Origin: an uncultured Alphaproteobacteria bacterium
GTDB lineage: Bacteria; Pseudomonadota; Alphaproteobacteria; CAAHEQ01; UBA3637
Direction: 5' to 3'
Length of the DNA: 64,000 bases
Assembly (NCBI GenBank): GCA_944391565.1
Contig: CALXUB010000019.1
Span: forward strand, 6,919-70,918
The notes under the pieces are model-generated. The model was not told the DNA's origin. It worked only from the letters and a program-made list of their open reading frames with translations, and did not search any database. Within the stretch, counting starts at the first letter, position 1, and the number at the start of each line of letters is the position of its first letter. The position numbers and the translations under genes are program-made. This document shows, piece after piece, positions 33,444 to 61,060 of this stretch.

Positions 33444-36239
33444 CTATTCTTCCAAAACAGCTTGAACCGTCAAGCGCACGGCCGAAACCGGATCGTCTTT
33501 CAACGGCATCAGCAGACGAAGCAGCTCTTGCTCCTCGGGCACCAGCCGACCCAAGGCCCATACGGCGCCCTCTCGAATCAAGGGATGCGTATCCGTCAGC
33601 ATCTCCGTCACAGTCGAAGTTAAAGACACTGCCCCTATTTTTCGAATGGCCAACAAAGCGCATGCCTTTGTCCAAGGCAATCGGTATGACTTGTTTTTCA
33701 AAAGGATGGCCAACGCCTCATTCATGGATAATTCATCTTTTTGAGACGTCGGATAAAACGCCTTTTCATCCGCAGCTGTTTCTTGTGCCGTTTTTAAAAT
33801 CACTTTCAACCGACGTTGTTTGCGAGGCAGCTGATCTTCAATCAATTCCAAAGCCATGCGGCGCTGTTCCGCCGAAGAAGTCCGACTCAGCAGACAGTCA
33901 ACGGCTTTGCGAAACAAGGCGGCCGGATACAGCAACGCCAACTCCATTAAAAGACTGTGGCGCACTTTTTGAAGTTCCCGATCCAAGGCTTTTTGCAAAA
34001 GCTCGAAAGCTTCCTGCGCTTCATGCACCGGCGCGATTTTTAAAGCTTTTTTCAAAGATTTCAAAATCAATCCTTGCCCTTCGTCCGCTTGGATCAACGG
34101 CAGCAGCATCTTACGGCGGCGGCGAGTGCCGGTTTGAAAAGAGCTCTCTTTCAAATGGCGCAAAATGTCAAAACGCAAAGCAAAAGGCGTGCGTTTTAAG
34201 GCTTTGAACAAAATTTTTTGTGCCTCGGTATCTTCATTGATCCACAGGAAAGAAACCAGCGTTTTTTTACACATCCAGGTCCGTTCGGGGCTGAGCAGAG
34301 CCTCGCTGATGGCGGGATAAGCTTTCGGTCCGAACTCTTTAATGGCCTGCAGCGCCTTGTCACGCAGCTCCAACGAATTCAGCGAACGAAACAAAATCGG
34401 CAAAAAAGACGGATGTTTCATGCGGCCGGCAGCTAAAACCGCTTTTTCCCGCACATGCAGATCTTCATCGTTCATCAATTTCAACACAAGTCTGAAAAAC
34501 CCTTTAATCCCGGTTTCTTCCAAAATCTCGGCGGCTTCCAGTCGATGTTTCGCACTTTTGGATGCTGCCAGCCGGTTCACGCCTTCCGAGGCAATTAAAA
34601 TTCCCTCGCCCCCGCTTTTCAACAACCCGATCAAAGCTCCTTGACGCAAATCAGGATGATCCAGATATAATACGGCTTTTTCCTCGGCATATTTTTCACC
34701 GATGGTGCATAAAACGCGAAGAACAGCACTGCGCACGGCCGGTGATTCATCATGTGTCAGCAAATCAGCCAACACTTTTTTGAACATACGATAGCGACCC
34801 TTTTCCACTCGTGTCAAAGCAAAACAACGCACGCGTTCATCCGGATGTTTCAACGCGCGACGCAGATAAGATTTATAACAATCCGCTTGCGCCTCTTCCA
34901 AAACACGCAGAAAATAAATTGCCTCGTCAGGGTCATAGCTTAACGCTTTTTGTGTCACATAAGACAACACCTTGCGATTGGTGATAATCAACCGACCGCC
35001 GCGCCAGCGAAAACTTTTAAAAGCGGACAATAAAACCTTGGCATATTCAGCCTGCGTACCGATGATAACACCGCTCAGCAATATTGCCGTGCCAAGGGCC
35101 GCCGGCCACACAAAATCCGAAAAAGGGAAGAAATAAAAACCCAATGCGGCAGCCATAAAACCAAGCGGGCGAAATAAAACAAAACGCATGGCTTTCAATC
35201 GATATGACTTACCGTGCGACAACGGACGAGGCAGCATTCTGAAATAATATGCGACACAACAATAGGCCAGAACGACAAATAAAATATCCGCTAAAAAAAC
35301 AATAGCTGTTTGACCGGACGACAATCCGACCGCCGCCAACAACGGCAGCAACGCAATGATCAATAATCCGTGTATCAAATGAAAACGATGTCGCAGCCGA
35401 TACAAAATCAAAGTGCCCGCAAATGCCGTCGAACCGGCAAAAGCCGTTATCTGTCCCATCAGGGTCATGGCGGCCGTTTTGTTTTCACCGACCGTTTCCA
35501 GCACCGCCAACAGGTAAATATAGTCAACTTGACACAAAGCAAACGCAATTAAAAAAGCGGCACTGTAAATCAAATAAACCAGTTTCATCTGAGACGGTTC
35601 CTGAACTCCGCCGTTGCGCGTCGGCCGAACTTCCGGTGTCTCTTTCTGAAAAGACAGGATCCAACCGGACAACAAAAACATGCCGAAAACCGTCATGATT
35701 AAAATCAGCCAAAATAAATCAAAGCCACCGATGAAAGCAATCGAACCGGCCGAAAAACCTCCGAAAATTCGACCGATTAAGTCCAATAAAACAATCCCTA
35801 AAAAACGTTTAGAATCCAGTGTTAAAGTCATAAAACGAGATGCCAAAGCCCAAAAACCGCCCAACAACAGCACCTGCAGCGCAAATTTCAGACCGAAAAA
35901 CACATCAATCGGCCAAGCCATCCCCTGATAAAAACCAGCCAACAACCCGGCCAGCCCCAAAAATAATCCGCCTAAAAACCACGGATAACCTTCACCGAAT
36001 CGATGCTCGGTTTTCAACAACAGCAAACCGGCCGGCATCAATAAAAAGCCGCCCCAAACAAACTCAAAGGCCAGATCAATGCGGCCATATGTGCCTAAAT
36101 AAAGCCCAGAAGCCAGCACATCCGCCCATGTCCCCGCCATGCCCTGTAAAAAAGCCAAAACGCCCAAAAGCGTCAGCAACAACAGTTCCTCGGATGAAAA
36201 AGTCAATATTTTCTCAAGCGTTCGACGAATCCGTCCCAT
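33444..36239 (-). CDS. fusion protein: N-terminal polytopic transporter-like domain (TLC/MFS-like) + C-terminal HEAT/PBS-lyase repeat domain
   Basis: Track ORF 33444..36281, with an uncertain start that overlaps ftsY. About 440 aa carry ~11 transmembrane helices, followed by ~480 aa of HEAT-like repeats (…ERVRCFALTRV…, …SPAVRSAVLRVL…). Confidence 0.55.
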   Translation of the reverse strand: MGRIRRTLEKILTFSSEELLLLTLLGVLAFLQGMAGTWADVLASGLYLGTYGRIDLAFEFVWGGFLLMPAGLLLLKTEHRFGEGYPWFLGGLFLGLAGLLAGFYQGMAWPIDVFFGLKFALQVLLLGGFWALASRFMTLTLDSKRFLGIVLLDLIGRIFGGFSAGSIAFIGGFDLFWLILIMTVFGMFLLSGWILSFQKETPEVRPTRNGGVQEPSQMKLVYLIYSAAFLIAFALCQVDYIYLLAVLETVGENKTAAMTLMGQITAFAGSTAFAGTLILYRLRHRFHLIHGLLIIALLPLLAAVGLSSGQTAIVFLADILFVVLAYCCVAYYFRMLPRPLSHGKSYRLKAMRFVLFRPLGFMAAALGFYFFPFSDFVWPAALGTAILLSGVIIGTQAEYAKVLLSAFKSFRWRGGRLIITNRKVLSYVTQKALSYDPDEAIYFLRVLEEAQADCYKSYLRRALKHPDERVRCFALTRVEKGRYRMFKKVLADLLTHDESPAVRSAVLRVLCTIGEKYAEEKAVLYLDHPDLRQGALIGLLKSGGEGILIASEGVNRLAASKSAKHRLEAAEILEETGIKGFFRLVLKLMNDEDLHVREKAVLAAGRMKHPSFLPILFRSLNSLELRDKALQAIKEFGPKAYPAISEALLSPERTWMCKKTLVSFLWINEDTEAQKILFKALKRTPFALRFDILRHLKESSFQTGTRRRRKMLLPLIQADEGQGLILKSLKKALKIAPVHEAQEAFELLQKALDRELQKVRHSLLMELALLYPAALFRKAVDCLLSRTSSAEQRRMALELIEDQLPRKQRRLKVILKTAQETAADEKAFYPTSQKDELSMNEALAILLKNKSYRLPWTKACALLAIRKIGAVSLTSTVTEMLTDTHPLIREGAVWALGRLVPEEQELLRLLMPLKDDPVSAVRLTVQAVLEE

Positions 36240-37128
36240 GACTTCCTCCCAACAAACCGTCCGCAAAAGCGGCCGCATCAAACGGCTGCAAATCCTCGGC
36301 CGTTTCCCCGACTCCGATATAATAAACCGGTAAATGATATGTCTGTGTCAAAGCAGCCAAAATACCGCCTTTCGCCGTTCCGTCCAACTTTGTAATCAAC
36401 AAGCCCGTCACATCCGCCATTTCCTTGAACGCCGCAACCTGAGACAAAGCATTTTGTCCCACCGTGGCATCCAACGTTAACAAAACCGCATGCGGCGCGG
36501 CGGGATTGATTTTGCGTATCACGCGGATGATTTTCTGTACTTCCTGCATCAGTTGTGCTTTATTTTGAAGCCGGCCCGCCGTATCCAAAAACAAAACATC
36601 ATCTTTGTTTTTAATGGCCGCCTGATAAGCATCATAAGCGCTGCCCGCCGGATCGGCCCCCATCTCTTTGGCATAGAAATGAGCTCCCGTTCGGTCAGCC
36701 CACACTTTCAGTTGTTCAATCGCCGCCATGCGAAATGTATCTACAGCGCCGAAGCCGACTTGAAGCCCCTGCGCTTTCATTTTCTGAGCCATTTTAGCAA
36801 TCGTTGTTGTTTTGCCGGCCCCATTGACACCCACCATTAAAATCACAAAAGGCTGAGCCGAACGCACATCCAAAACACCTTCAGCCGGCTGAAGCAAAGC
36901 CGTCAACCGTTCTTTTAAAAAAGCTTTGGCTTCTTCAGGGGATTGAGGCTTCGCGGCTGCCAGTTCCCGTATCAAAACCTGCGCTGTTGAAACCCCCATG
37001 TCGGACATAATCAAGGCATCTTCGATTTCCTCCAACGCAGCGGCATCCAATTTCGTAAATCGAAAAGCCGTTTCCAACCGATCCGATGTTTTTTTTAATC
37101 CTTCTTTAAGTCTCTGCCACCAACTCAT
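36214..37128 (-). CDS. ftsY: signal recognition particle receptor FtsY (short form)
   Basis: 304 aa. NG domain with GVNGAGKTTTIAK and the DTAGR motif. Confidence 0.85.
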   Translation of the reverse strand: MSWWQRLKEGLKKTSDRLETAFRFTKLDAAALEEIEDALIMSDMGVSTAQVLIRELAAAKPQSPEEAKAFLKERLTALLQPAEGVLDVRSAQPFVILMVGVNGAGKTTTIAKMAQKMKAQGLQVGFGAVDTFRMAAIEQLKVWADRTGAHFYAKEMGADPAGSAYDAYQAAIKNKDDVLFLDTAGRLQNKAQLMQEVQKIIRVIRKINPAAPHAVLLTLDATVGQNALSQVAAFKEMADVTGLLITKLDGTAKGGILAALTQTYHLPVYYIGVGETAEDLQPFDAAAFADGLLGGSHGTDSSNA

Positions 37129-39506: not shown

Positions 39507-39689
39507 AATCATCAAAACAAAAATTTTTTTATCTTAAAAAAAACTGACTTTTCCTGACATTTCAAAGGCTAAAACATGAAATAGATTTCCTATGAAATAT
39601 TTTTATTACAAAAAACTTGTATTATTAGTTCAATTTTGGTAATAATGAAATAACAAAAGCTCAATTTGGAGTCTTTTGACATGAACATT

Positions 39690-39865
39690 GCTTCATGGGG
39701 GAATTGCTATTTCCTGATAGACCAGTCAAAGAGTAAAGACTGTCAAAAATAACTCCTCGCCCGTTTGGGAAGGAGTTGAAGTGAATATTCAATAGCTTCA
39801 GCCTAAGTCTATCAGGATAGCAGCTCCTTCCCGCCTTGACGGATCAAGGCGGGTTTGAACGGGAG
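39690..39865. other. highly structured non-coding element of nested inverted repeats, upstream of the XRE-like gene
   Basis: Outer inverted repeat: ggaattgctatttcctgatagac (39701-39723) pairs with gtctatcaggatagcagctcc (39807-39827). Inner hairpins: cagtc…gactg, aactcct…aggagtt, and ccgccttga-cgga-tcaaggcgg (39831-39852). Confidence 0.3.
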
Positions 39866-39870
39866 GACGC

Positions 39871-40188
39871 ATGTCTATAGATGAAAACTGGTATACTTAT
39901 CCGTTTTTTCAAACAACCTATCAGGAAGCGATGCGAACCATTCGCCAAGAAATCTCCGTGCAACTTCGCCGACTGAAAGAAAACGGAAAATGGACCGATG
40001 CCGATATTTCGGTCGAAACCGGACTTACTTTGGATCATTTATATATTCTGGAAAACGGATATTATTCCGATATCCCGTTAGATTTACTGATACCTCTGGC
40101 ACAGTTTTACGATAAAACAGTGCATGTTGTTCTAACAGATCCATCAGTGGACACTTTGCAAAAAATTACTTTGCTTGAAGAACTTTAA
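39871..40188 (+). CDS. XRE-family helix-turn-helix protein (105 aa)
   Basis: HTH-like segment ISVQLRRLKENGKWTDADISVETGLTLDHLYILENG. Confidence 0.5.
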   Translation: MSIDENWYTYPFFQTTYQEAMRTIRQEISVQLRRLKENGKWTDADISVETGLTLDHLYILENGYYSDIPLDLLIPLAQFYDKTVHVVLTDPSVDTLQKITLLEEL

Positions 40189-40546
40189 GCCACATTTCCA
40201 AAACAACGGCACTGTTCTGCCAAATCATCAAGACGGACAAAACCGCGTTCGCCGTCCACACAATGACAGCCACACGTGCCGCAAAAGCCCAAAATGTTCG
40301 ACCACGGGATTCAGAACGAGCAGAAGCCCGATAAACACCGACCGCCTGCCAAACCGACACAAAAATATGGAACAGCTGATAATTCAATAAAACACGAAGA
40401 AAAAGATTGCCCTCACCGGCCTGAAGCAGCCCGATAAAAAGAAAGGAAAACGGTAAAGACAATATAAAATTCACCAATACCGTATTCACCCAAAAACTGA
40501 CCGCCAATGAATACTGCCCCTGCCAATGCTTCAAAAGCCAGTTCAT
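40166..40546 (-). CDS. small integral membrane protein (126 aa, 4 predicted transmembrane segments)
   Basis: Hydrophobic segments are evident. Last gene of the traG-orf204-orf154-orf126 co-directional string. Its start overlaps the stop of 40543..41007. Confidence 0.45.
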   Translation of the reverse strand: MNWLLKHWQGQYSLAVSFWVNTVLVNFILSLPFSFLFIGLLQAGEGNLFLRVLLNYQLFHIFVSVWQAVGVYRASARSESRGRTFWAFAARVAVIVWTANAVLSVLMIWQNSAVVLEMWLKVLQAK

Positions 40547-41007
40547 CGCAGCTCCTTGACACTATCGGACTTCACCAAATCTTCGGTGAATAAATACAAA
40601 ACATCAAAAAAACGCGGCAGCGCCAAATCCGCCATTAAATCCATCCGATCCATCAATTGATAATTTTTTTCCCGTGCGTTATAGACAATATAATCTTCGT
40701 CTTTTTCACCCACCAGCAACAATCCTTGAGACCGCTGCCGCTCGGCAAAATCGGTATTGACCTCCAACAAAGAAGGAAATGCATAATTCTGCTCAGTTCG
40801 CTCATGAGACGCAACACCGTAAAAACGAAGCCCGTTCCAAATCAAACCGTCCGTCAAAGCCAAAAAAGTCATGTAATCCGATGGCAGCGGCGGCAGTTTG
40901 TTGCGCGCAAGCGTCATCCGAAGCAAACGGATCTCTTCTTCTTTGGCCGGTGGAAAAACCTGTGCCCGCGCCCGATACATCTTATCCAACAGCTTTTCCA
41001 ACAGCAT
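40543..41007 (-). CDS. SUKH (SMI1/KNR4)-like putative immunity protein (154 aa)
   Basis: The motif LPPLPSDYMTFLALTDGLIWNGLRFYGV matches the SUKH-1 LP.dY..FL…nG…g pattern. The size is typical for the family, and the gene lies directly downstream of a candidate toxin gene. Confidence 0.45.
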   Translation of the reverse strand: MLLEKLLDKMYRARAQVFPPAKEEEIRLLRMTLARNKLPPLPSDYMTFLALTDGLIWNGLRFYGVASHERTEQNYAFPSLLEVNTDFAERQRSQGLLLVGEKDEDYIVYNAREKNYQLMDRMDLMADLALPRFFDVLYLFTEDLVKSDSVKELR

Positions 41008-41009
41008 TT

Positions 41010-41624
41010 TTATCTCCCCGGCATGCTTTTTTGAGCCAAGCTTTTAAATGCGCTTTCGCTATACCCCGCAAACACGCTTCGATCATGTTTGCCTTTACCG
41101 CCCGACCCTGTATACATTGTCAAAGGAATGTAAACCTTGCCCGTCGGAACCGGAATATACAGCTTGCGCGGACGAACATTCGGCGCCATGCCTTCCATCT
41201 GCATATCCATAAAACGATGAATATCTTCATGATAAGGGATATTCTGAATTAAGCACAGATTCGAAAAGTCGACTTCCCCCGTGTAGTCAAACGGGATTTT
41301 AACATGAACATTAAAGTTTTCGGGAATGATGCCTTTTTTAAAATAAAAAATACTGTCTTCATCCAATCCCGCATTGCGCAGATCATTCACATAGTTATAA
41401 GAAACATAGCGTAAAAAATCGCGTTTCACCCGGGCATATTGTTTTTTTCGGTTGATTTTTTCCAACAGTGTCAACGGATAGACCGTTGCTTCGACCAAAT
41501 CCATGCCCGGAAAGTTCATTTTTTGAAACTTGGCTTCCCAATAGGCCAAATCAAACAGCATGTCATCCGTCACTTGGGTGACAATCTTTTTGTGTTGGGC
41601 AGGAAAAAGAACTTCGGCGGGCAT
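41010..41624 (-). CDS. hypothetical protein (204 aa), candidate effector/toxin paired with downstream SUKH-like gene
   Basis: No signal peptide. Lies 6 nt downstream of the T4 coupling protein gene and 2 nt upstream of the SUKH-like gene. I recognised no catalytic family. Confidence 0.4.
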   Translation of the reverse strand: MPAEVLFPAQHKKIVTQVTDDMLFDLAYWEAKFQKMNFPGMDLVEATVYPLTLLEKINRKKQYARVKRDFLRYVSYNYVNDLRNAGLDEDSIFYFKKGIIPENFNVHVKIPFDYTGEVDFSNLCLIQNIPYHEDIHRFMDMQMEGMAPNVRPRKLYIPVPTGKVYIPLTMYTGSGGKGKHDRSVFAGYSESAFKSLAQKSMPGR

Positions 41625-41630
41625 AAAAGA

Positions 41631-43793
41631 TTATTCCTCCAGCTCGTAAATTTCTTCCTGAAGCGAGTTTGCCAAACTGTCCAAATCCGTATTTTCACGT
41701 TGTGCCACAATCCAATAAGGCACAAACGGCGCTCGCGGCAATGAACATTTTTTGCGCATTCCTTTATCTAAATACCAACGCGGCGCATCCGCCAAAATCG
41801 GACGATTCAAAAAGCCCTGCATAATCACATACTGCTTCAGCATATCCAAGCTCATCATTTCGGAAGCACCCACCACTTGTGTGGCCTGAAGCTGTTTGGA
41901 TACGTTAGCGGACAACTTCGGATTAAACCCAAAAGATTCCTGTTGCGACACACTGGCCGTTTGAATGGTTTTGGTACCGATCATTTTCGAAAAACGTTCG
42001 GCCGTTTGTTCATTGTTCTGCGCCAAAATCACTTTCGCCGCCGTTGTTGTAATAATCGTTTCCAAATCATCCTTACCATATTGACCGGAAATCTGTCCCA
42101 AATCCTGCCCGATCAACAAGTAAGACACTTTTTGTCCGCGTCCCACGGCCGGACCGTCTTTCACTGCGGCCAGCTTCGGCATCTGCGGGAATTCGTCCAA
42201 CACGAATAAAACAGGATAAGGTCCCGATTTAACCCCATCCGTTCCGACAAAGTTTGGCGGATTGGCAATCAAAAAAGAGCTCATCAATTCAACGAACATA
42301 CCGGTAATCACCGACAAAGCCCGCGCATCTACCTGATTTACGGACAAATACACGGAAATTGGTTTCATCTCACCCGTTATAGGATCCTTCATACCGCGCA
42401 AATCACGGAACGTAAAATCCGAAAAGCGCGTACGAGCCCGAACGGCCGAGTTTTTAAAGACACCGATCCCCGTTAAAGCCGTTGATAAAATAGAGCCGCG
42501 TTCCTTATCCGGCGTGCTGGCCAGCTGGTTCATTTCCAACATCGCGCGTTGAGAATAGTGAAACCGGGAACACTCGTTCACGGCGAAATCCAACACATCC
42601 CGCATAGGATCTGCCAACGCTGCCATTTGATCACCCGCATCGGCACGGCGTTTAATATCTGCCGCGATTTTCATTTGTGTGTCATTTAACCAATCCAAAA
42701 TCATGGCAATACACGGCTCGGCCCCATGCCAATACTCGGGCAATCCCTCCCAAGTGCCGATCGGAGCATAGCTGTCATACGTCAGGGTTCCCTGCTGCAA
42801 AGCATCCAACGCCGTCCGTGCGCTCATATCGGGCATATCGGCATAATAAGTAGCCAAAACCTTAGCATCCTCGGCATCAAAGCTGCCATCCATCAAACGA
42901 GCCACAAAGTAGTCGTTGGCGCGGGCACGTTCACACTTACTGGCAATAAAATGCAAAAAACCGGACATGGCGTTTCGACCGGTCTTGGACCAGTGCGGAT
43001 CCGCGCCGCCCTTTGGTTCTTCGACAATCACGGCCACCATGCTGTCGATATACATGTCGCGCGCCGGACCGGCAGGCGGCAGACAGCTGGGTGACAACGG
43101 GTTCCAAGACGGATAAAACTCCCCTTTTTCAGGGTTATCTTCCGCACCCCAGTTAATAATAAACACAGGCCCCTGCGTCGCACGATAACCGGAGGTGTTA
43201 AAGCACAATTCCGGCTTGGGGTCATTGACGATAATACTCATACCGGGTGATTCCAAAATTGTCGGTATCACAACCCCCACCGTTTTACCGGTTCCGGGAG
43301 GTGCCACCACCAAAGCTGACAATGTTTCCGGCATCTTTAAAAGCTTGCCCTTAAACCGACCGAGAACAATAACAAAGCCATTAAATAACTTCATCTTTTT
43401 AATATCGGCATAGGTGGCAAGTCGCCCGCCGCCGAAGGTTTTTAACATAAAGTCATTCGGATTTAAAATAGCAGCAATCGCAAAAATCCCCGCCCCGATG
43501 ATCCACGGCAGAATTAAAATGAACACACGGGCAAATTGTCCGACCCGCAGACTTTTGGCAAGACCCAGGTTATACTGAGAAAATAAAAACTTCGGATTTT
43601 TAACCGACTCGACGAAAAAGTTAATGGAAGTCGCCAAAGACTGTCGACTGAGGCCGTTTTCAATAATATGATTGATCGGAATAATCAAGAAAAATAAAAC
43701 AACCGCCGTCACCAGACCGATAAAAGCCCATACGACTAAAAACGATACCGCCTTATCGCGATCAGCATATTCCGCAGCACGTTGAAAAACCAT
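41631..43793 (-). CDS. type IV secretion system coupling protein (VirD4/TraG family)
   Basis: 720 aa with N-terminal transmembrane helices, Walker A (VVAPPGTGKTVGVVIPT), and T4CP-like length and architecture. No other T4SS genes are in the window. Confidence 0.75.
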   Translation of the reverse strand: MVFQRAAEYADRDKAVSFLVVWAFIGLVTAVVLFFLIIPINHIIENGLSRQSLATSINFFVESVKNPKFLFSQYNLGLAKSLRVGQFARVFILILPWIIGAGIFAIAAILNPNDFMLKTFGGGRLATYADIKKMKLFNGFVIVLGRFKGKLLKMPETLSALVVAPPGTGKTVGVVIPTILESPGMSIIVNDPKPELCFNTSGYRATQGPVFIINWGAEDNPEKGEFYPSWNPLSPSCLPPAGPARDMYIDSMVAVIVEEPKGGADPHWSKTGRNAMSGFLHFIASKCERARANDYFVARLMDGSFDAEDAKVLATYYADMPDMSARTALDALQQGTLTYDSYAPIGTWEGLPEYWHGAEPCIAMILDWLNDTQMKIAADIKRRADAGDQMAALADPMRDVLDFAVNECSRFHYSQRAMLEMNQLASTPDKERGSILSTALTGIGVFKNSAVRARTRFSDFTFRDLRGMKDPITGEMKPISVYLSVNQVDARALSVITGMFVELMSSFLIANPPNFVGTDGVKSGPYPVLFVLDEFPQMPKLAAVKDGPAVGRGQKVSYLLIGQDLGQISGQYGKDDLETIITTTAAKVILAQNNEQTAERFSKMIGTKTIQTASVSQQESFGFNPKLSANVSKQLQATQVVGASEMMSLDMLKQYVIMQGFLNRPILADAPRWYLDKGMRKKCSLPRAPFVPYWIVAQRENTDLDSLANSLQEEIYELEE

Positions 43794-43797
43794 CCCC

Positions 43798-44907
43798 CTA
43801 CTCCTCTTTTTCTAAAGCTGTTTCCACCGAAGCGAAGACATCATCGGCCATCGGTTCGATACTGGTCGGAAAAGCGTCCGTGAAAGAAGGCAATTCTTCG
43901 GGCATTCCCAGATCCGTACGCGCAACCGTCACATCCATTTCTTTCCAAATATCTTTCATGTCTTCGGCATTGATAATATTGCCTTTTGTTTTAACAAGCA
44001 GCACATGCGGCGTCAAGGTAATCCCGGCGCTGCCCAAAGTCGCTCCCAGCCGTTCGGCCGCCCGCCGCAATACCGTCAAAGGTGAAATGCGGTGCGCGCT
44101 TTCCGAAAACCACAACGGATCTTCATCATTAAAGCGTTCTTCATCTGCCAACCAATCGCCCGGTTCATTATCCAACAAGACCAAATAAGCATCTTTTTGC
44201 CCGAAAGCGACATAATCCATACGATCCTCGCCCAAACGCACATTCTTTTGAATACGTGCACCGGCATTTTCCATAATGGCGTTTAAATCCTCACGCAGCG
44301 GTTCGACAGGTGTCTCGCTCATTGTCAAAGCATCGCTTTGCGGCAGAGTCCCGGCAGCGGCAAACGGCGAAGAAGACGCCAAATCATCCGGCAATTCCCG
44401 ATGTGAAAAATGCGGTGTTTCATCAGACGGACGACGAGGCGCAGCATCCATCAAAAACCCGGGTTCCTGTTCGGCCGCAGGAGGCATGGGCGCCTGAGCT
44501 GCGCTCATCACGGCCGTCAAAGGCTTTGGTCGAATTTCTTTGTAAGAACGTTTTTTACGTACGCGAATTTTCTTGTTTTGCTGCTGCACCTTTTTGGTTT
44601 TGTTTTGGTAAATCCAATCCCAGAACAGCTTTTCCATCAGGCTTGTATAATTGACGGAAGCCAAAAAGAAAAATCCCATCAGCCAAACGGGAATGGCGAA
44701 AAACAAACTTAACACGAAAATCCAGTAATAGCTGCCTTGAATCACCCAGCCGCCATACCACCATTGTTGGAAAATATATTGCCAATGATAACCCAAGAAA
44801 ATATCAAAATCCCAGTTTGTCAGCAGGAACCAATGAAACCACAAAAAGAACAAAAACGTCCAAAGGGTAAAAATAAATGTGTCGCGCAGCAGATTTTTAA
44901 AGTTCAT
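43798..44907 (-). CDS. membrane-anchored hypothetical protein (369 aa)
   Basis: Aromatic-rich N-terminal transmembrane region (…FIFTLWTFLFFLWFHWFLL…) followed by a hydrophilic acidic C-terminus. Sits immediately upstream of the T4CP gene, with a 4 nt gap. Confidence 0.5.
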   Translation of the reverse strand: MNFKNLLRDTFIFTLWTFLFFLWFHWFLLTNWDFDIFLGYHWQYIFQQWWYGGWVIQGSYYWIFVLSLFFAIPVWLMGFFFLASVNYTSLMEKLFWDWIYQNKTKKVQQQNKKIRVRKKRSYKEIRPKPLTAVMSAAQAPMPPAAEQEPGFLMDAAPRRPSDETPHFSHRELPDDLASSSPFAAAGTLPQSDALTMSETPVEPLREDLNAIMENAGARIQKNVRLGEDRMDYVAFGQKDAYLVLLDNEPGDWLADEERFNDEDPLWFSESAHRISPLTVLRRAAERLGATLGSAGITLTPHVLLVKTKGNIINAEDMKDIWKEMDVTVARTDLGMPEELPSFTDAFPTSIEPMADDVFASVETALEKEE

Positions 44908-45068
44908 TCCAAAAACCTTTCTTTTTTATTTTTTGTCATTATACATAAATTGAGAACATTTTGCCAGCACAAAATGAAAAATTATTCATTTTTTCAAAAA
45001 TGATGACAAAAAAACGTTAAAAAAGAGACTTATGTTTATTTGAAAAGGCGAAAAAATGCGTTTTTCAA

Positions 45069-45100
45069 GAAAAAATCCCGGGCGCGCGAACGGCCCGGGA
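45069..45100 (-). terminator. rho-independent terminator downstream of RHH paralog 2
   Basis: The stem cccgggc-gcgcgaacg-gcccggg is followed by a U-run on the minus strand (plus-strand aaaaaatcccgggc…). Confidence 0.55.
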
Positions 45101-45115
45101 AGTCCGGCGGATTAA

Positions 45116-45412
45116 TTATTGAGCCCGAACGGCATTTAAAACTTGTTCCACCCGAAAACTCGGCGCCGCCTCAACCACAGGCTTTATGTTGACTTCATAC
45201 TTCGCCAAAGACCGACGATAATATGTCAACACAAACAAACGCGTCGCCGACGATAAACCTGATGAGCCTTTGGAACTGTCAATCAACGAACACAATTTAT
45301 AAAGTGAAATATTCTCGCGTTTGCAGATATCCGATAACGCCGCCCACGTTTCTTTATCCAAACGCATACTGGTTCTACGGCCGTTCACAACAACATTTTT
45401 ACATAAAAGCAT
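45116..45412 (-). CDS. ribbon-helix-helix domain protein (COG4321-like), copy 2
   Basis: Track ORF 45116..45448. Start MLLCKNVVVNGRRTSMRLDKETWAALSDICKRENISL aligns with copy 1 at 8112..8405. Confidence 0.5.
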   Translation of the reverse strand: MLLCKNVVVNGRRTSMRLDKETWAALSDICKRENISLYKLCSLIDSSKGSSGLSSATRLFVLTYYRRSLAKYEVNIKPVVEAAPSFRVEQVLNAVRAQ

Positions 45413-45550
45413 TGTTTTTTCCCCTTCTTTGTTATATTTTATAAACATACGATTTCGTGACGAATCGACAACGCACTTATTATAAGAATATTATATTAAA
45501 TATGCAACTTTTATTTGTAATATTCTCGTTAAAATTTGGAAAAATGATAA

Positions 45551-46099
45551 ATGGACTTCGGTAAAAAAGGAGCAACTCCTTCAAAACAAAGAATTTGTGA
45601 CCATCCGAACTGCGATAAGGAAGGGCTGTATCGTGCACCCAAAGACCGCACGCTTCGCGAGCATTACTGGTTTTGCCTGGAGCATGTCCAACAATACAAC
45701 AAGAACTGGAATTATTACGAAGGGTTGGGACCCGAACAGATTGAAGAAGAAATCCGGCGCGATATCGTAGGACATCGGCCGACTTGGAAAGTCAACGATC
45801 TATATGCCAACAGATTGAAAGACCCGTTTGATATTTTAGGATTGGGGCGTCGCCGTCCGCGTCCGACGTCTTTTAGCGAACAGCAAAAAGAACGGCCTTC
45901 GTTGGTGACCATCGAACATTTGGAAGCAATTAAAACTTTGAAATTAACGCCGCCCATTACATTGGACAGTGTCAAAAAAAATTATAAAACACTCGCCAAG
46001 AAATATCATCCGGACAAAAACAATGGCGATAAAAAAGCGGAAGAAACCTTTAAGTCCATTACCTGTGCCTATCGGCTGCTGTTAAAAGCTTTGAAATAA
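45551..46099 (+). CDS. J-domain protein with N-terminal Cys/His zinc-finger-like region
   Basis: 182 aa with a C-terminal J domain (YKTLAKKYHPDKNNGD with the HPD motif). N-terminal CDHPNC…HYWFCLEH. Confidence 0.65.
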   Translation: MDFGKKGATPSKQRICDHPNCDKEGLYRAPKDRTLREHYWFCLEHVQQYNKNWNYYEGLGPEQIEEEIRRDIVGHRPTWKVNDLYANRLKDPFDILGLGRRRPRPTSFSEQQKERPSLVTIEHLEAIKTLKLTPPITLDSVKKNYKTLAKKYHPDKNNGDKKAEETFKSITCAYRLLLKALK

Positions 46100-54171: not shown

Positions 54172-57100
54172 ATGATTAAAAAAATACTTTTCAGTTTAGT
54201 GACCTTTGGATTGATTTTCAGCAATTCAAATGTTTCCGCACAAGTAAGACCGATGAACATTGCGCAAGCGAATCCCCGAACAATGATATATCATTATGCA
54301 CAAACCGGGAATCTTCAAAATCTGCTTTTATTAAAAAGACAAGGCTATGCCATCGACCTTGTTGATGAAAAAGGCAACAGTGCGTTATGTGAAGCCACCT
54401 GGCGACAGAACCAAACAGCCGTCGATACACTCATTCAAGCCGGCGCGGATACAAACAGCACCTGCATGCAAGAAATCCCGCAATCATATAAAGACGCCGT
54501 CAACATTACTTATATGGACGAACCCATCAACACACTTCGCAAACCCTCTAAGGCCGGCACAATTTGCTCGATCAGCAACAACGGTACACGAACTTGCACG
54601 CCTGTTTTGCAAGACGGCACTGTTGTTGCCGGAACCGACAAAGCCTCTGATCGTGCAGCAGCTGCCTATGTCATCGATCACAGCATCGGAACAACAGCTG
54701 CCGGAACCAATGAAGGCCTCAGCACCGGCGTTAAAATCGGTATCGGCATCGGTGCAATCGCCCTGATCGGCGGCGGTATCGCATTAGCCGTCGGTGGTGG
54801 TGGCGGCGGCGGCGGAAAAGGGAACGGTTCAACACCTACCGACCCCACTCATCCTGATAATCCGGACAACCCGGACAATCCCGGCCCCGATAATCCGGAT
54901 AACCCGGACAACCCCGATAACCCGGATAACCCCGATCCTGATAATCCGGATAACCCCGATCCTGATAATCCGGACAAGCCCGACCCTGACAATCCGGACA
55001 AGCCTGATCCTGACAATCCGGATAACCCCGACCCTGACAATCCGGACAAGCCTGATCCTGACAATCCGGATAACCCCGATCCTGATAATCCGGACAAGCC
55101 TGATCCTGATAATCCGGATGAACCAACCAAAATATGCAACGCCGGTGAATTCCTGACTGAAGCGGAAACATGCGAAAAGTGCGGACTGGGATATTACGCC
55201 AAACACGGATCGAACATCTGTACACCGTGCGCAGTCGGCAGCTATGCCAACCAATTAGGTTCCATTGTTTGCACGGCTTGTCCCATCGGTCGAAGCACTT
55301 CCGGGATTGCTTCCACTTCTTGCGACGTTTGCGCGACCGGCTACAAACAACAAGGAGAGTCGTGTCTGCCGTCATGCCGAGCCGGAGAATACTGGGACGG
55401 CAGCATGTGCGCGGCTTGTCCGCAAGGCACCTTCTCTATCGCCGGTGCAACAACTTGCTCGAAATGTCCCGATGGATATACAACGGCAGAAGAAGGCAGT
55501 TCTTACTGCGATGCCTGTCAAGAAGGGTATGTCTGGCTGGACGGATTTTGTGAGCAACAATATGAATTAGATCCCCAAGCTGTTTGTCAGCCCGGGTATC
55601 GACCGAACGATAACGGCGGATGTTCTCCCTGTCCGATTGATTCCTATGGCAGCGACGGCACCAATTGCTATCGTTGCCAAACCGGCTATACGACAAACAA
55701 AACAGGTTCCACCAGTTGCGATATTTGCGAGGAAGGATACTATTCCGACAATGGTGTTTGCCGGCCCCATTGTCAAGCCGGATATTATTGGGATGGCAGC
55801 AACTGTCAAATATGCGCGCCCGGTTCTTACTCCTCTAAAGGCAGTTTAAGTTGTACCGCGTGTTCCAGAAACACTTACCAACCATCAGCCGGTCAATCAA
55901 CATGTATTTCTTGTCCCGTCGGTTCATTGACCGAATCTGCCGGTGCGACAGCCATTGAACAATGCAACACTTGCTATGGCGGTTATATTTTAAAAGATGG
56001 TTCTTGTCAAACCTGTCCGGCCGGATCTTATGCGGACAGCTCATCCAACACCTGTGTTCAATGCCCGATCGGACAATACAGTCCATCTGAGGGACGAAGC
56101 GCTTGTTCTACATGTCCGGAAGGACAGACAACAACCGCCCTCGGATCGACAAGTTGCAGCTGTGACACAGCCAACGGTTATATTGCCGTCGGTGATGAAT
56201 GCCGCCTGAAACAATATTCCTGCGAAGCCGGCAATTATTGGGACGAGACAGAAGGCAGCTGTCAAACTTGTGAAGCTGGAACGTTTTCGGCTTCCGGTGC
56301 GAACTACTGTACCGCCTGCCCATATGGTTATTTCAATGCTTCAGCCGGTGCCGCCGTCTGCCAGGCATGTCCTCAAGGATGGACAACGTCATCCAACGGC
56401 ATGACAAAATGTGATATTTGTGCCGATGGGTGGACCATGGAAAACGGACAATGCGTCACAACCTGCCCGGCCGGACAAGTTTACAACGGTTCGGCGTGTG
56501 AAGCCTGTCCCATCGGCAGCTTTGCACTCAAAGGGGCTTCTTCATGTACCCTCTGTCCGCAAGGCTGGACAACATCCGCGGCCGGCGCCCTCACCTGTGA
56601 CCTCTGTGCGGACGGTTATCAACTGAATTCATCCACCGGCAATTGTGTTCATCAGGATGAAGGCGTTTGTGACGCCGGATGGGCTTGGAACGGGACTGAA
56701 TGTCAACCCTGCCCGGCCGGTGAATATTCCGAAGGAGAAAACTCCCTGTGCCACAAGTGTGCCATCGGGTATTATTCTACACAGGAAGGCAGCACCAGCT
56801 GCACCCGCTGTCCGGTTGGATCTACGACACAGGAAGAAGGTTCTACCAGTGCCTTGCAATGCAACATCTGCGGCATCGGATATTCTTGGTCCGCAAGTGA
56901 AGGAAAATGCGTCACGGAATGTAAGAACGGTATGTTTTGGAACGGATCGACCTGTGAACTTTGCCCGGCCGGAACCTATACCAGAGGCTTAGAAAATAAT
57001 GGCGCTATTCCAACTTCGTGCCAACCTTGTTCCGCCGGCACTTATTCTGCAATAGAAGGCGCCACATGGTGTTCATATTGCCCAAGTCACTCAACCTCTG

Positions 57101-60100
57101 TTGAGGGAGCAACCGACATATCCTTTTGCACTTGCGAAGACGGCTATTATAACACAGATAAAGTAACCGTTAATTGTGTGCCGCATTGTCAAGCCGGTCA
57201 AAGATGGACCGGAACCGAGTGTGTTGACTGTGCGGCAGGGACTTATTCATCCTCCAGCGGGGCAACTGAATGCTACCGATGCTTTTACGGTTCGATTTCC
57301 GAAGCCGGCGCAACCAGCTGTACATCTTGTCCCGAAGGTTTTTCGACTTCTGCCTTAGGATCAGACACTTGCGATATTTGCGCTGCGGGATATGAGGGAG
57401 ACGGCACAACTTGTACAATCTGTTCTGCCGGCACCTATTCGAATGCTTTGACGAATCGCACATGTATGCCTTGCGCGATCGGAACGTATATCAGTACTGA
57501 CGGCGGATCTTCCTGCACGGCTTGTCCGACCGGTTATACAACCGAAACAACAGGCTCCTCCGACGTCGAAGCTTGTCGTATCTGTTCGGAAGGCTACATC
57601 ATGAAAAACGGTAAATGCGTCGCCAACAACAAATCATGTGCCGCCGGTGAATATTGGGCAGGTGATTCCTGTGCTTCCTGCGCTGCGGGAACGTATTCCG
57701 TGGAAGGTTCCATTGCCTGCTTACAGTGCCCGAAAGGTACATATACTTTGGAAAGCGGAAGTCAAAGCTGCACATCCTGTCCCGAAGGATTTACGACCAT
57801 GGGTTTCGGATCCACAACGGCAGACGCTTGCTCAATCTGCGCGGAAGGATATAAGTCCGACGGCGCGGGCGGATGCGTCTTGGCACGGGAAACATGTCCC
57901 AGCGGAGAATACTACAACGGCTTTCAGTGTGTCTCGCTTCCTGAAAACGCCCAAACCGATGCAGATGACATCCGAGGATGGACCTGTGTCAGCGGTTATA
58001 CCCGCGTAGGGGATAACTGTATCTTGACGACAGATTTAAACATTACGACCAATCCGCAAGACACAACATTAACATCAACCATGACGGCAACCCTTTCGAA
58101 TGCCGGATCGGTGCTGGCTGTCAATGACGGCACGATTGAGATTTCCGAAACTGAAGGCAGCTCCAACAGTCTGGTCGGCATGAAAACAACGGGGTTTGGA
58201 TGGGGAAGTTATGAGGCCTATATCGTCAACAACGGCACCATTCAAATGACATCAGAGCAGGCTTCATTGACCGGTATTGACGCCGCTAGCCATTTTGCCG
58301 ATAACAACGGCACCATCCGGTTATCGTCCAACTCGGGCAGTTTAAATGGTATAGTAGCCAAAAAAGGATATAATTACGGCCAAATTGAGTTGACCGGCAG
58401 CAAATCTATTAACGGGATGAGCAGCAACTCTTATAACTCTGAGTTAAAAAATTACGGCTCTATTTTGTTAAACGGAACAAACAGCAATTATCTTTGTGGT
58501 ATCTCTTATAACGATACGAGCGATGTAATGGAGAACTACGGAACCATCCAAATCAATTCTTTTGAAGGAAGTAGTATGAGCGGTATGTCCGGAGACTTAT
58601 CCGTCAACTATGGCACCATTCGTATTCAAGATTACCAAAACATTTCCACGTCTTCAAGCTACCTGACAACAGGAATGAACGGCGGGAAAAACTATGGAAA
58701 TCTGTTCATAGATGTGCAAAACAGTGAAAAAGAGTATATTGTCAGCGGCATTCATTCCGGACAAAACTACGGAATGATTGACATCTATGCTCGAAATCTG
58801 GAGAAAAACACCCAATTATCCGGAGCGAATGCTTCAACTAATTTCGGAACCATTTCGATTGTCGCGGATCATGTTAAAAGCATCACCGGCATACTAAACG
58901 GCAACAATTATGGAACGATTCGGATGAACACTTCCGACACATCGACGGTCACCGGATTGAATATACAAAACAACGGAATGATAGAAATAATTGCATCCGG
59001 CGCGACAAATGTCTACGGTGTCTATAGTCCCTCTTTTTATGATACTCATAATAACGGCATGATCAAGGTGACATCCATTGGAAAAGAGACAAACACCACT
59101 GCCGGTTTGTACAACACAAAAAACTACGGTGACGTTTATGTCAGCGGATCCGGACAATATTTGTATGGTTCCAAGGGAATATCTGCTTCCAATTACGGAA
59201 ACATCACACTGACCGGCTCTGCCGATTATGTTTACGGAATGGATGGCTATTATAACAGCGGCACGATCCGTATCGATGCCTCCAAAACATCTTATGTTGT
59301 CGGCATGAAGCCAAGCACTATTTCCACGAATGAAGGAAAAATCAGCATCATCAACAGAGGAAATAACGCTGTTTACGGCATCTTGAATTATATTTCGACA
59401 ACAAATGCCGCCGGAGCGGAAATCAATATCGAAAACACCGGAAATGGAACGGCTCACGGCATTTCGGGCGGCTATTCCGTCTATAACGACGGAACAATCC
59501 GAATTACCAATACCGGCAACGGAACAGTCTATGGTATCGACAATGCGACTTCAGTGACGAACAGAGGTCTGATTGAAATTACCAATACCGGCACGGGGCA
59601 AGCCTATGGCATTTATCTGAATGGAGCCGACAAATTCGTTTCCAATGAAGGAACTATCTCCATCAACGGCACTTCCTACACAGGCAACGCACCGTCCGGC
59701 AATTTCATTGTTCTGGAAAACAACGCCAGCTTGGCAACCAGCGGAACATTATCAAGCTCGGGTGCACTGGATTTGAACGCTTTTTCACCGGACGGAACAG
59801 GGCGCATTGCATTGATGCCCAACGGCCGTGTAGAGGGCGAATCTATCTCGGGAGATTTACACATCGACGCATCCAACGTGACGAACGGATTTAAAACCGC
59901 TTACACACTGTCGGATGCCGTCAAGGCCAAAGAAACAAGCAATTTAAACTTAATTTCCGACTCGGCTTTATTTAATGCCGATTTGGCCGACAACGGCGAA
60001 GATGTCATTATGCAAATGAAATCTTTTGACCAAGTGACTGCCAACAAAAGCCTGGCTGATTTTTTGACGGCAAATTATGCGGCTGCCAACAACGAAACAC

Positions 60101-61029
60101 TCTTTAACGAGTTAAAATCAATTGAAACGCAGAAAGCTTTAAGCTCCGCCGTTAAATCCATAACGGGCGCCGAAATCATGACACGGTTCGCCAACGAAGA
60201 TTTAACCGCTATTCGTGATGTCAACCAAACCATGAACAGCCTGATGTTTGCCAATAACGACAAACCGATGTTCGAAGCAACCGGCGCTTTAGACACCTTC
60301 AGCTTTAAAAACAACGATCAATCCTCGGCGCAATATGCGTTAGCCAACAAACGGATCACGCCGCGCCTTAAAATCGGCTATGCCATGAGCAACACGAACA
60401 TGAGCACGGACGATGATCACGACACCACACGGCGAAACAATATCTTCCAAGTTTTCACGCCCGTCAACTATGACCGCTTTGGCTGGCAGTTCATCTCAAC
60501 GCCGCAAATCGGATATGCTCGCGCGCATTATACGCGTCAAGGATGGAACTCCATGTCCTATGACGGTATTTTGGAAAAAAGAATCTTTGCTTTGATGAAC
60601 GAAGCGCGCTACCCCATCGATTTAGGAAAATGGGACGTGTCGCCGACAGTCGAATTGAATGCAATCATCTATAACCAAAGAGGACATGAAGATAAAAAAG
60701 CATTTGCCCTCAGAATACCGTCAGATAACAGTGTCTCCCTGGAAGCCGGTTTGGGTTTCTATCTGCAGCGAAAGTTAGGTGATTTGAATGTTTCCATGGG
60801 GCTGATGCTTTATCGAGAATTTGCCGACCCCTACACCATGAAGGCCGGCATGCAAGAGATGAACGGAACATTTGACTTGTATGATGAAAAATATTCTCCT
60901 TACCGTGGAACAGCCTCTTTCCTTTTCGGCTACGACCTCGGCAGCTTTAATCTGTATGGTTCCCTGAAACACTTTATTGAAAATGACACGCATACCCATT
61001 TGAAAGCAGGTGTGAAATATGCCTTCTGA
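54172..61029 (+). CDS. giant autotransporter-like surface protein with tandem ephrin-receptor-like (GCC2/GCC3-type) cysteine-rich repeats
   Basis: 2285 aa. The layout runs: signal peptide (MIKKILFSLVTFGLIFSNSNVSAQV); an ankyrin-like repeat (GNSALCEATWRQNQTAVDTLIQAGADTN); a Gly-rich hydrophobic stretch; a (PDNPD)n linker; ~900 aa of repeats C-x2-C-x2-G-x-Y-(S/T)-x4-6-C-x2-C; a passenger-like region with NYG repeats; and a ~290-aa C-terminal beta-barrel-like domain ending …LKAGVKYAF. Confidence 0.75.
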   Translation: MIKKILFSLVTFGLIFSNSNVSAQVRPMNIAQANPRTMIYHYAQTGNLQNLLLLKRQGYAIDLVDEKGNSALCEATWRQNQTAVDTLIQAGADTNSTCMQEIPQSYKDAVNITYMDEPINTLRKPSKAGTICSISNNGTRTCTPVLQDGTVVAGTDKASDRAAAAYVIDHSIGTTAAGTNEGLSTGVKIGIGIGAIALIGGGIALAVGGGGGGGGKGNGSTPTDPTHPDNPDNPDNPGPDNPDNPDNPDNPDNPDPDNPDNPDPDNPDKPDPDNPDKPDPDNPDNPDPDNPDKPDPDNPDNPDPDNPDKPDPDNPDEPTKICNAGEFLTEAETCEKCGLGYYAKHGSNICTPCAVGSYANQLGSIVCTACPIGRSTSGIASTSCDVCATGYKQQGESCLPSCRAGEYWDGSMCAACPQGTFSIAGATTCSKCPDGYTTAEEGSSYCDACQEGYVWLDGFCEQQYELDPQAVCQPGYRPNDNGGCSPCPIDSYGSDGTNCYRCQTGYTTNKTGSTSCDICEEGYYSDNGVCRPHCQAGYYWDGSNCQICAPGSYSSKGSLSCTACSRNTYQPSAGQSTCISCPVGSLTESAGATAIEQCNTCYGGYILKDGSCQTCPAGSYADSSSNTCVQCPIGQYSPSEGRSACSTCPEGQTTTALGSTSCSCDTANGYIAVGDECRLKQYSCEAGNYWDETEGSCQTCEAGTFSASGANYCTACPYGYFNASAGAAVCQACPQGWTTSSNGMTKCDICADGWTMENGQCVTTCPAGQVYNGSACEACPIGSFALKGASSCTLCPQGWTTSAAGALTCDLCADGYQLNSSTGNCVHQDEGVCDAGWAWNGTECQPCPAGEYSEGENSLCHKCAIGYYSTQEGSTSCTRCPVGSTTQEEGSTSALQCNICGIGYSWSASEGKCVTECKNGMFWNGSTCELCPAGTYTRGLENNGAIPTSCQPCSAGTYSAIEGATWCSYCPSHSTSVEGATDISFCTCEDGYYNTDKVTVNCVPHCQAGQRWTGTECVDCAAGTYSSSSGATECYRCFYGSISEAGATSCTSCPEGFSTSALGSDTCDICAAGYEGDGTTCTICSAGTYSNALTNRTCMPCAIGTYISTDGGSSCTACPTGYTTETTGSSDVEACRICSEGYIMKNGKCVANNKSCAAGEYWAGDSCASCAAGTYSVEGSIACLQCPKGTYTLESGSQSCTSCPEGFTTMGFGSTTADACSICAEGYKSDGAGGCVLARETCPSGEYYNGFQCVSLPENAQTDADDIRGWTCVSGYTRVGDNCILTTDLNITTNPQDTTLTSTMTATLSNAGSVLAVNDGTIEISETEGSSNSLVGMKTTGFGWGSYEAYIVNNGTIQMTSEQASLTGIDAASHFADNNGTIRLSSNSGSLNGIVAKKGYNYGQIELTGSKSINGMSSNSYNSELKNYGSILLNGTNSNYLCGISYNDTSDVMENYGTIQINSFEGSSMSGMSGDLSVNYGTIRIQDYQNISTSSSYLTTGMNGGKNYGNLFIDVQNSEKEYIVSGIHSGQNYGMIDIYARNLEKNTQLSGANASTNFGTISIVADHVKSITGILNGNNYGTIRMNTSDTSTVTGLNIQNNGMIEIIASGATNVYGVYSPSFYDTHNNGMIKVTSIGKETNTTAGLYNTKNYGDVYVSGSGQYLYGSKGISASNYGNITLTGSADYVYGMDGYYNSGTIRIDASKTSYVVGMKPSTISTNEGKISIINRGNNAVYGILNYISTTNAAGAEINIENTGNGTAHGISGGYSVYNDGTIRITNTGNGTVYGIDNATSVTNRGLIEITNTGTGQAYGIYLNGADKFVSNEGTISINGTSYTGNAPSGNFIVLENNASLATSGTLSSSGALDLNAFSPDGTGRIALMPNGRVEGESISGDLHIDASNVTNGFKTAYTLSDAVKAKETSNLNLISDSALFNADLADNGEDVIMQMKSFDQVTANKSLADFLTANYAAANNETLFNELKSIETQKALSSAVKSITGAEIMTRFANEDLTAIRDVNQTMNSLMFANNDKPMFEATGALDTFSFKNNDQSSAQYALANKRITPRLKIGYAMSNTNMSTDDDHDTTRRNNIFQVFTPVNYDRFGWQFISTPQIGYARAHYTRQGWNSMSYDGILEKRIFALMNEARYPIDLGKWDVSPTVELNAIIYNQRGHEDKKAFALRIPSDNSVSLEAGLGFYLQRKLGDLNVSMGLMLYREFADPYTMKAGMQEMNGTFDLYDEKYSPYRGTASFLFGYDLGSFNLYGSLKHFIENDTHTHLKAGVKYAF
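54837..55125 (+). repeat. tandem ~15-nt DNA repeat (cc(t/c)ga(t/c)aatccggacaa(g/c)) encoding (PDNPD/PDKPD)n linker inside the autotransporter gene
   Basis: About 19 consecutive near-identical units are visible. All three frames remain open across the tract, which produces the overlapping repeat ORFs listed in the track. Confidence 0.8.
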
Positions 61030-61030
61030 G

Positions 61031-61060
61031 AAAAGCAGGCCTGATCCGGGCCTGCTTTTA
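61031..61060 (+). terminator. rho-independent terminator after the autotransporter gene
   Basis: aaaagcaggcc-tgatccg-ggcctgctttt: an 8-bp GC stem followed by a T-run, immediately after the TGA. Confidence 0.7.

Follow-up and report, generated by a model that had tools for sequence, protein, structure and literature searches.

The locus described here is a compact operon built around a coupling protein of type IV secretion systems (T4SS), found in 64,000 nucleotides of chromosome from an uncultured Alphaproteobacteria bacterium (GenBank assembly GCA_944391565.1, contig CALXUB010000019.1, positions 6,919 to 70,918 of the forward strand); this whole stretch is called the window below. An earlier interpretation made from the letters alone, hereafter the sequence-only reading, had described here a type IV coupling protein (T4CP) of 720 aa followed by proteins of 204 and 154 aa and a small membrane protein, and all four open reading frames (ORFs) were confirmed where it had placed them. 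Its gene array omitted, however, the gene directly upstream, which encodes a 369-aa membrane protein with a nuclease-related (NERD-like) domain (TM-NERD, TM standing for transmembrane) and is an obligatory member of the operon. The five genes lie co-directionally on the minus strand, separated by gaps of 2-6 nt or joined by a 4-nt overlap:

43798..44907, minus strand: gene of the TM-NERD-like membrane protein, 369 aa, the first gene of the operon (ORF list)
41631..43793, minus strand: gene of the VirD4-type T4CP, 720 aa (ORF list; PF02534)
41010..41624, minus strand: gene of an HNH (His-Me finger) toxin-derived protein, 204 aa (profile search; core at about residues 30-167)
40543..41007, minus strand: gene of a SUKH-fold protein of the YrhA family, 154 aa (NF038335)
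40166..40546, minus strand: gene of a small membrane protein, 126 aa (ORF list; TM-like segments)

The conservation of this arrangement was followed by scanning one genome per species with the HNH-like family, which yielded 77 loci in metagenome-assembled genomes from the human, ruminant, rabbit and chicken gut; all statements on synteny cover every locus long enough to show the genes concerned. In these 77 related genomes the order and orientation of the TM-NERD, T4CP, HNH-like and SUKH genes are constant, and at all loci the SUKH gene lies immediately downstream of the HNH-like gene, while the flanking housekeeping genes vary between lineages. Identity to the window proteins is 59-98% for the T4CP, 30-97% for the HNH-like protein, 27-82% for the SUKH protein and 28-78% for the TM-NERD protein, and the ratios of nonsynonymous to synonymous substitution (dN/dS) among close pairs are 0.005-0.036, 0.008-0.06, 0.02-0.12 and 0.03-0.135, respectively. 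Across 59 taxa the four genes correlate with one another in pairwise distance (Spearman 0.77-0.87). Polymorphism of the kind expected from a toxin/immunity pair was not seen in any of the 77 genomes, all of which carry the same domain pair, with no cassette array and no diversifying selection. Given the strict synteny, the correlated distances and the purifying selection, the pattern is that of a vertically inherited, functionally integrated operon, and not of a polymorphic cassette, a defence island or a decaying integrated conjugative element. The fifth gene, which overlaps the SUKH gene by 4 nt and whose product contains TM-like segments, is an accessory member kept in part of the clade only, with homologs confined to L001, L007, L008, L010-L013, L017, L051 and L067 (locus numbers of our survey). 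Three contigs that carry the operon, L017, L037 and L067, sit in bins labelled Lactobacillales or Holdemanella biformis, and these labels are probably binning or labelling errors.

The T4CP matches the Pfam families PF02534 T4SS-DNA_transf (2.5e-56), PF12696 TraG-D_C (7e-23) and PF10412 TrwB_AAD_bind; the NCBIfam VirD4/TraG models match as well, with scores under their cut-offs. A Walker A motif (GTGKT) stands at residue 167 and a Walker B-like motif (LFVLDEFP) at residue 529, preceded by N-terminal hydrophobic TM segments at residues 20-38 and 92-110. Judged by these signatures, the protein of 720 aa belongs to the VirD4/TraG-type T4CPs, and its ATPase motifs are intact. Its closest plasmid homologs (32-36% identity, on alphaproteobacterial megaplasmids) are each the last gene of a canonical virB2-virB11-virD4 operon. 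In the window itself the picture differs: Pfam, run on the 38 larger ORFs, found neither VirB nor relaxase genes among them, and the VirB2-B11 proteins of two plasmids had no tblastn match within the window, which bears out the sequence-only reading on this point. The absence of a relaxase from the scanned ORFs speaks for a system of effector type and against a conjugative one, although such a gene could be located elsewhere.

That reading had further called the T4CP an orphan, which holds for the 64-kb window, where it stands alone, and fails for its relatives, in which genes of the secretion channel adjoin the operon. At L021, whose T4CP is 70% identical to that of the window, the order is virB10 - virB11 - DnaJ - RHH - TM-NERD - virD4 - HNH-like - SUKH. 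The VirB10 homolog there (7-4290) bears an N-terminal Gly/Val-rich repeat extension of more than 1000 residues, and virB11 follows at 4309-5298; we take the extension to be reminiscent of DotG/IcmE. At L057 a VirB8 homolog and a TrbL/VirB6-like gene lie beside the operon, and at L084 and L085 (T4CP 63% identical) it is adjoined by three tandem TrbL/VirB6-like paralogs and a duplicated TM-NERD-like gene. A metagenome scan with the VirB6-like proteins for further T4SS loci returned one 1.2-kb contig. Taken together, the T4CP is probably not functionally orphan, and we infer that the virB genes of the window's own genome lie elsewhere in it. The deep-branching loci L084 (1-9868), L085 and L057 also carry, around the operon, conserved proteins of 356 aa and 371 aa (the latter Lys-rich) of no assigned function and two DUF1189 genes; homologs of the 356-aa protein are found upstream of the module in L068-L083 too.

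The 204-aa protein was indeed unannotatable by ordinary means, as the sequence-only reading had it: the window copy has no Pfam, NCBIfam or PDB sequence match, and Pfam, with the E limit set to 10, recognised no family or domain in 29 HNH-like members. An exhaustive profile search with an E limit of 1e-3, by contrast, gathered representatives of 542 clusters, and in many of them the domain occupies the extreme C-terminus of long proteins whose N-termini are the modules that polymorphic toxins are typically carried on (RHS repeats, PT-HINT, PT-TG or phage MuF/portal). The domain region of these toxin relatives weakly matches Pfam HNH (PF01844), with an alignment that spans the whole core, and the motif P..[WF][QN]VH.K.P...GG.N.F.N..L....P.H is common to the family. 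On the strength of these profiles, the core of the 204-aa protein is homologous to toxin-type HNH nuclease domains, and over about 130 residues it forms one family with the HNH toxin domains of RHS, PT-HINT, PT-TG and MuF proteins. Those toxins have long delivery modules, keep two adjacent histidines (HH) and end some 30 residues past the motif, whereas the window protein stands alone, has H-V at the same place and continues into a 36-residue tail. This tail (residues 169-204) is disordered, Gly/Lys-rich and invariant in sequence (GSGGKxKxDRS…MPGR). Direct homologs are confined to uncultured Alphaproteobacteria of animal guts, and neither on the window protein nor on its orthologs was a trafficking or pre-toxin module recognised.

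The orthologs vary in length from 143 to 467 aa through N-terminal extensions (L001, L029, L054, L057, L058, L060 and L084), which are of low complexity and, in L084, where the composition was inspected, P/Q-rich. In several lineages a conserved start, MW[D/E]WS, precedes the extension; the window protein does not have it. In loci L068-L083, a subgroup in which the operon has diverged, the HNH-like protein stops right after the core and the SUKH ORF overlaps the end of the HNH-like ORF.

The feature that sets the T4CP-linked family apart is found at the active site. In the β1 motif the toxin-type relatives read W-Q-V-H-H-K-x-P and the T4CP-linked family N-V-H-[L/I/V/M]-K-x-P, so that the second histidine of HH, the general-base position at the end of strand β1, is Val108 in the window protein. 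Every one of the 51 close homologs that match the pattern has L, I, V or M at this position (6 others fall outside the pattern), and 34 further representatives have L, I, V or M, or in single cases Arg or Gln; the divergent subgroup L068-L083 shares the substitution. By contrast, 64 toxin-type representatives keep HH. In an alignment to a colicin DNase, which reads …LHHEKP…N…HIDIH against …VHVKIP…N…HEDIH in the window protein, the latter retains the first histidine, the structural Asn and both helix histidines, and has Val for the second histidine; this alignment and that with the toxin relatives confirm the register. H107 is invariant, and N122, H132 and H136 are at least 90% conserved, all of them aligning with His/Asn positions of the colicin. 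The retained histidines correspond to the metal ligands H544, H569 and H573 of ColE7. The general base of ColE7 is His545, and of its mutants H545Q has little activity and H545E none (PMC1802626). Because the equivalent histidine is replaced here and the ColE7 mutants are inactive, the T4CP-linked protein is predicted to be nuclease-dead or strongly attenuated.

A free-standing counterpart occurs at L090 (3581-4780), where the gene of an HH-type HNH protein of 232 aa precedes that of a SUKH homolog of YrhA type (hhalign probability 96%) among housekeeping genes, with no T4CP; it is a candidate for an active, unlinked form. Since unlinked pairs of this kind keep HH, the substitution is specific to the VirD4-linked form, and the change from H-H to H-[LIVM] offers a simple annotation mark that separates the T4CP-linked subfamily from true toxins.

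The identification of the 154-aa protein as SUKH, made earlier from a short hallmark, held up well. It belongs to the NCBIfam YrhA family NF038335 (2.2e-22, 79.5 bits against a cut-off of 55), with the Pfam models SUKH-1, SUKH-5 and SUKH-6 staying sub-threshold (13-15.5 bits versus 25-27). Its AlphaFold2 model is confident (pLDDT 89.9, pTM 0.84), and the top Foldseek matches of that model are the SUKH structures YobK (2prv), BF1740 (3d5p), Lin2918 (2icg) and PSPTO_5518 (2pag), with TM-scores of 0.56-0.70 and a probability of 1.0. A complementarity of charge between an acidic SUKH and a basic HNH-like protein was considered and dropped, as isoelectric points vary widely among the orthologs.

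The 369-aa protein begins with TM-like segments at residues 11-29 and 63-81, from which a disordered linker rich in K/R leads to a conserved domain at the C-terminus. PF08378 NERD is matched by 12 of 27 members of the family, with a best E of 4.2e-5; the window copy has no Pfam match and no PDB sequence match, and it is for this reason called NERD-like only. The protein is thus predicted to be membrane-anchored, with a NERD-like cytoplasmic domain.

Turning to the surroundings, the operon has the GC content of its flanks (0.44-0.50), no tRNA gene occurs in the window and no integrase lies near the operon, and the genes co-diverge vertically throughout the clade, all of which contradicts the earlier view of the locus as an island. 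The remaining window is ordinary chromosome, with Lpx genes, BamA, RseP, Tsf, RpsB, DnaE, Lol, UvrD, FtsY, AnmK, TrpRS and others. The features that adjoin the operon are:

44908..45115: intergenic region upstream of the operon, holding an inverted repeat of 14 nt and, on the minus strand, two matches to sigma-70-like promoters
45116-45448, minus strand: RHH_4 gene (PF13467, 3e-16)
45551-46099, plus strand: DnaJ-domain gene (PF00226, 2.3e-15)
39507..40188, plus strand: strain-specific insertion of about 660 bp, absent from the closest relatives and outside the conserved module

The promoter matches, which are matches to the consensus only, lie on the minus strand at 45009-44981 and 44967-44938, and the arms of the inverted repeat at 44929-44942 and 45000-45013; the region 44908..45115 is a candidate promoter and operator of the operon. 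The RHH gene had been proposed as one border of the island. The RHH_4 and DnaJ-domain genes are instead conserved neighbours of the operon in many, not all, lineages, standing upstream of it in about half of the loci, with RHH proteins 54-95% identical. The other proposed border, an XRE regulator next to a structured element rich in inverted repeats, turned out to be a strain-specific insertion. This insertion is missing in L008 and L007, in which AnmK directly adjoins the gene of the small membrane protein, and its XRE-like ORF (39871-40188), a weak HTH_3 match (7.6e-4), has no homolog across 86 loci. As for the structured element, Rfam gave chance-level matches only over 39-46.2 kb, and the insertion holds just a handful of inverted repeats of 10-12 nt, with a perfect 10-bp hairpin at 39830-39853.

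Farther away, the window encodes a giant eukaryote-like protein in this gut alphaproteobacterium, of 2285 aa (54172-61029, plus strand), with at least 8 cysteine-rich repeats of ephrin-receptor-like/TNFR type and an N-terminal ankyrin match. A 945-aa protein (33444-36281, minus strand) combines a hydrophobic N-terminal half, apparently polytopic as judged by eye, with HEAT repeats. At 61000-64000 the GC content falls to 34-38% and a serine resolvase gene is found (62451-63083); this part has no relation to the T4CP operon and is probably foreign or mobile DNA.

Among known systems, the nearest relative of the HNH-like/SUKH pair is found in Escherichia coli. The 204-aa protein can be aligned to the C-terminal domain of YhhZ with 30% identity (E 2e-13), and the 154-aa protein to YrhA, a member of the same NCBIfam YrhA family, likewise with 30% identity (E 1e-6); both pairs share the gene order of toxin, then immunity. 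As both partners align, the homology extends to the window pair as a whole, whose counterpart is an Hcp-fused toxin with its YrhA partner. The differences are equally clear. YhhZ of E. coli K-12, annotated as a putative endonuclease, carries an N-terminal Hcp domain, whereas the window protein has neither Hcp nor a trafficking domain; YhhZ reads NVHHK where the window protein reads NVHVK, and the latter adds a downstream His and a basic tail. Pairs of the YhhZ/YrhA type are variable and linked to a secretion system of type VI (T6SS), in contrast to the window pair, which is tied to VirD4 and TM-NERD and fixed in its clade. From its architecture, YhhZ would belong to the Hcp-ET1 class. HNH DNases of that class (Hcp-ET1/ETi1, T6SS effectors) degrade the DNA of target cells according to a review (PMC6099711). 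The DNases of colicins E7 and E9 differ in the general base, which is His545 in ColE7 and Val here, and in their partner, an Im-type four-helix protein rather than SUKH.

With the X-Tfe/X-Tfi systems of Xanthomonas and Stenotrophomonas, to which the locus had been compared, the likeness is one of concept, in that toxins are recruited by VirD4 and have cognate immunity proteins. The X-Tfes, a diverse and scattered set, carry a C-terminal XVIPCD and act mostly in the periplasm, with lipoproteins as their immunity proteins. No XVIPCD-type domain was detected in the window protein and, unlike X-Tfes, its toxin domain looks inactivated. A closer precedent in kind is Bartonella VbhT/VbhA, a toxin-antitoxin module that was captured by a VirB/D4-type T4SS and became a secreted substrate (PMC5675462). 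VbhT is nonetheless a FIC toxin with a BID signal and is still enzymatically active, and the domain families differ from those of the window pair. Two further systems only work alike: the Legionella DotL-DotM-DotN-IcmSW-LvgA complex, in which a T4CP has an upstream membrane partner and small cytosolic partners, and Agrobacterium VirE2/VirE1, in which a substrate is held by a small chaperone. The operon shows no sequence or fold relationship to the subunits of a Dot/Icm-type coupling complex (DotL/DotM/DotN/IcmSW). In the rvh system of Rickettsiales virD4 stands directly after virB11, and we know of no NERD, HNH or SUKH genes described with it. The rvh genes make up a P-type T4SS scattered on the chromosome, with multiple tandem VirB6-like paralogs (PMC2653234). 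The present clade has a similar trait in the tandem VirB6-like genes beside the module in L084 and L085 and the VirB6-like gene in L057, by which orthology with rvh is not implied.

We favour, at a probability of about one half, the view that this is the VirD4 coupling operon of a scattered VirB/D4 T4SS, into which an HNH-toxin/SUKH pair was captured and then fixed after the general base was lost. In this scenario the clade of gut Alphaproteobacteria would possess a P-type VirB/D4 T4SS whose genes are dispersed around the chromosome and whose coupling operon is conserved throughout. An ancestral virD4 operon would have captured a pair of the YhhZ/YrhA type, and the HNH protein would have kept its fold, the structural Asn and the three metal-ligand histidines, with an aliphatic residue taking the place of the general base, so that it would no longer serve as a polymorphic killing toxin. 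The SUKH protein would stay bound to it as a chaperone or partner, and the complex of the two might dock on VirD4, which the TM-NERD protein would accompany in the inner membrane. From here two fates can be imagined for the HNH-like protein: it may, as with VirE2/VirE1, be a dedicated substrate, translocated by means of the disordered, basic tail at its C-terminus, or it may be a fixed adaptor subunit. A narrower version, that the pair is a permanent, catalytically dead component of the coupling complex (a VirD4 adaptor, or a non-cleaving DNA-binding effector with its chaperone that this widespread uncultured clade of the mammalian and avian gut would export) and that TM-NERD is a new obligatory partner of VirD4, is put forward more tentatively.

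Several observations weigh against this proposal. Most loci have no virB genes nearby; in the subgroup L068-L083 the HNH-like protein has no Gly/Lys-rich tail; the metal-ligand histidines and the Asn are retained, as though still of use; and a kept immunity-type gene would be explained most simply by residual toxicity. The last two fit better with an active DNase effector that the T4SS sends via VirD4 into competitors, the 154-aa SUKH protein protecting the producer, which is close to what the sequence-only reading had suggested. The toxin-family ancestry of the HNH domain, the constant adjacency of the SUKH/YrhA partner, the resemblance of the disordered basic tail to T4SS signals, the presence of T4SS genes in the clade and the X-Tfe/X-Tfi and VbhT/VbhA precedents (PMC5675462) would all suit such an effector. 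We nevertheless regard it as unlikely, since all T4CP-linked members whose motif can be recognised lack the general-base histidine that toxin relatives keep, the corresponding mutants of ColE7 are inactive (PMC1802626), no polymorphism, cassette array or diversifying selection is seen, no trafficking domain is recognisable and the tail is absent in one subgroup. The earlier claim thus survives in part: a toxin/immunity ancestry is supported by the HNH toxin family and the YrhA-type SUKH, while an active killing DNase is doubtful with the general base lost, and a pair that is fixed, co-diverging and under strong purifying selection does not behave as a T4SS killing-effector pair.

Somewhat less likely again is a membrane machine for DNA processing that is independent of any T4SS, in which a VirD4-like hexamer would move DNA, the NERD-like and HNH-like proteins would bind or cut it and SUKH would regulate them, in the service of defence against incoming DNA, of DNA uptake or export, or of chromosome maintenance. 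Such a machine would make sense of a tight operon that combines a translocase ATPase with an inhibitor-type protein and two nuclease-related domains, and also of the core-gene-like conservation and the scarcity of nearby virB genes. It is hard to reconcile with the virB10-virB11-module order of L021 and the virB6 and virB8 neighbours in deep-branching lineages, or with the missing HNH general base; defence systems, moreover, are normally patchy and mobile, unlike this operon. A search for known anti-phage defence systems with PADLOC gave marginal matches only (mad8, 1.7e-4, on the TraG-D_C region; PDC-M40A, 2e-3), and none was accepted.

An addiction module of the toxin-antitoxin kind, hitch-hiking beside virD4 and stabilising the locus with no link to secretion, is improbable: free-standing HH-type HNH and YrhA-type SUKH pairs without a T4CP do exist (L090), but the general-base substitution is specific to the T4CP-linked form, the linkage and order with virD4 and TM-NERD are kept in 77 of 77 genomes although the flanks have been rearranged, and vertical retention throughout a clade is not the norm for selfish modules. 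Finally, the decaying remnant of an integrated conjugative element, which a lone VirD4 with no relaxase or channel genes in the window might recall, is effectively refuted by the selection and synteny data, namely the intact ATPase motifs, the T4CP dN/dS of 0.005-0.036 and the clade-wide retention, together with the lack of an integrase, a tRNA gene or a compositional shift at the operon.

No description of an operon of VirD4, TM-NERD, HNH-like and SUKH genes was found in the searchable literature. The domain families are known ones (VirD4, SUKH/YrhA, and a toxin-type HNH minus its catalytic residue); it is the four-gene combination that appears to be new at the system level. T4CPs decide what is secreted, and their accessory partners are little known outside Legionella; here, across a common uncultured gut clade, a VirD4 is genetically locked to three partners that the searchable literature does not describe with T4CPs. 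Should the 204-aa protein prove to be still toxic, it would be a T4SS killing effector that is conserved and non-polymorphic, acts on a cytoplasmic target and is paired with SUKH immunity, unlike the Xanthomonas paradigm. If, on the other hand, the pair serves as a nuclease-dead substrate or a domesticated adaptor, this would be a clear example of exaptation, with a conflict system taken into the machinery of secretion, and such a domestication, if true, would give an experimental entry into the biology of these uncultured gut bacteria.

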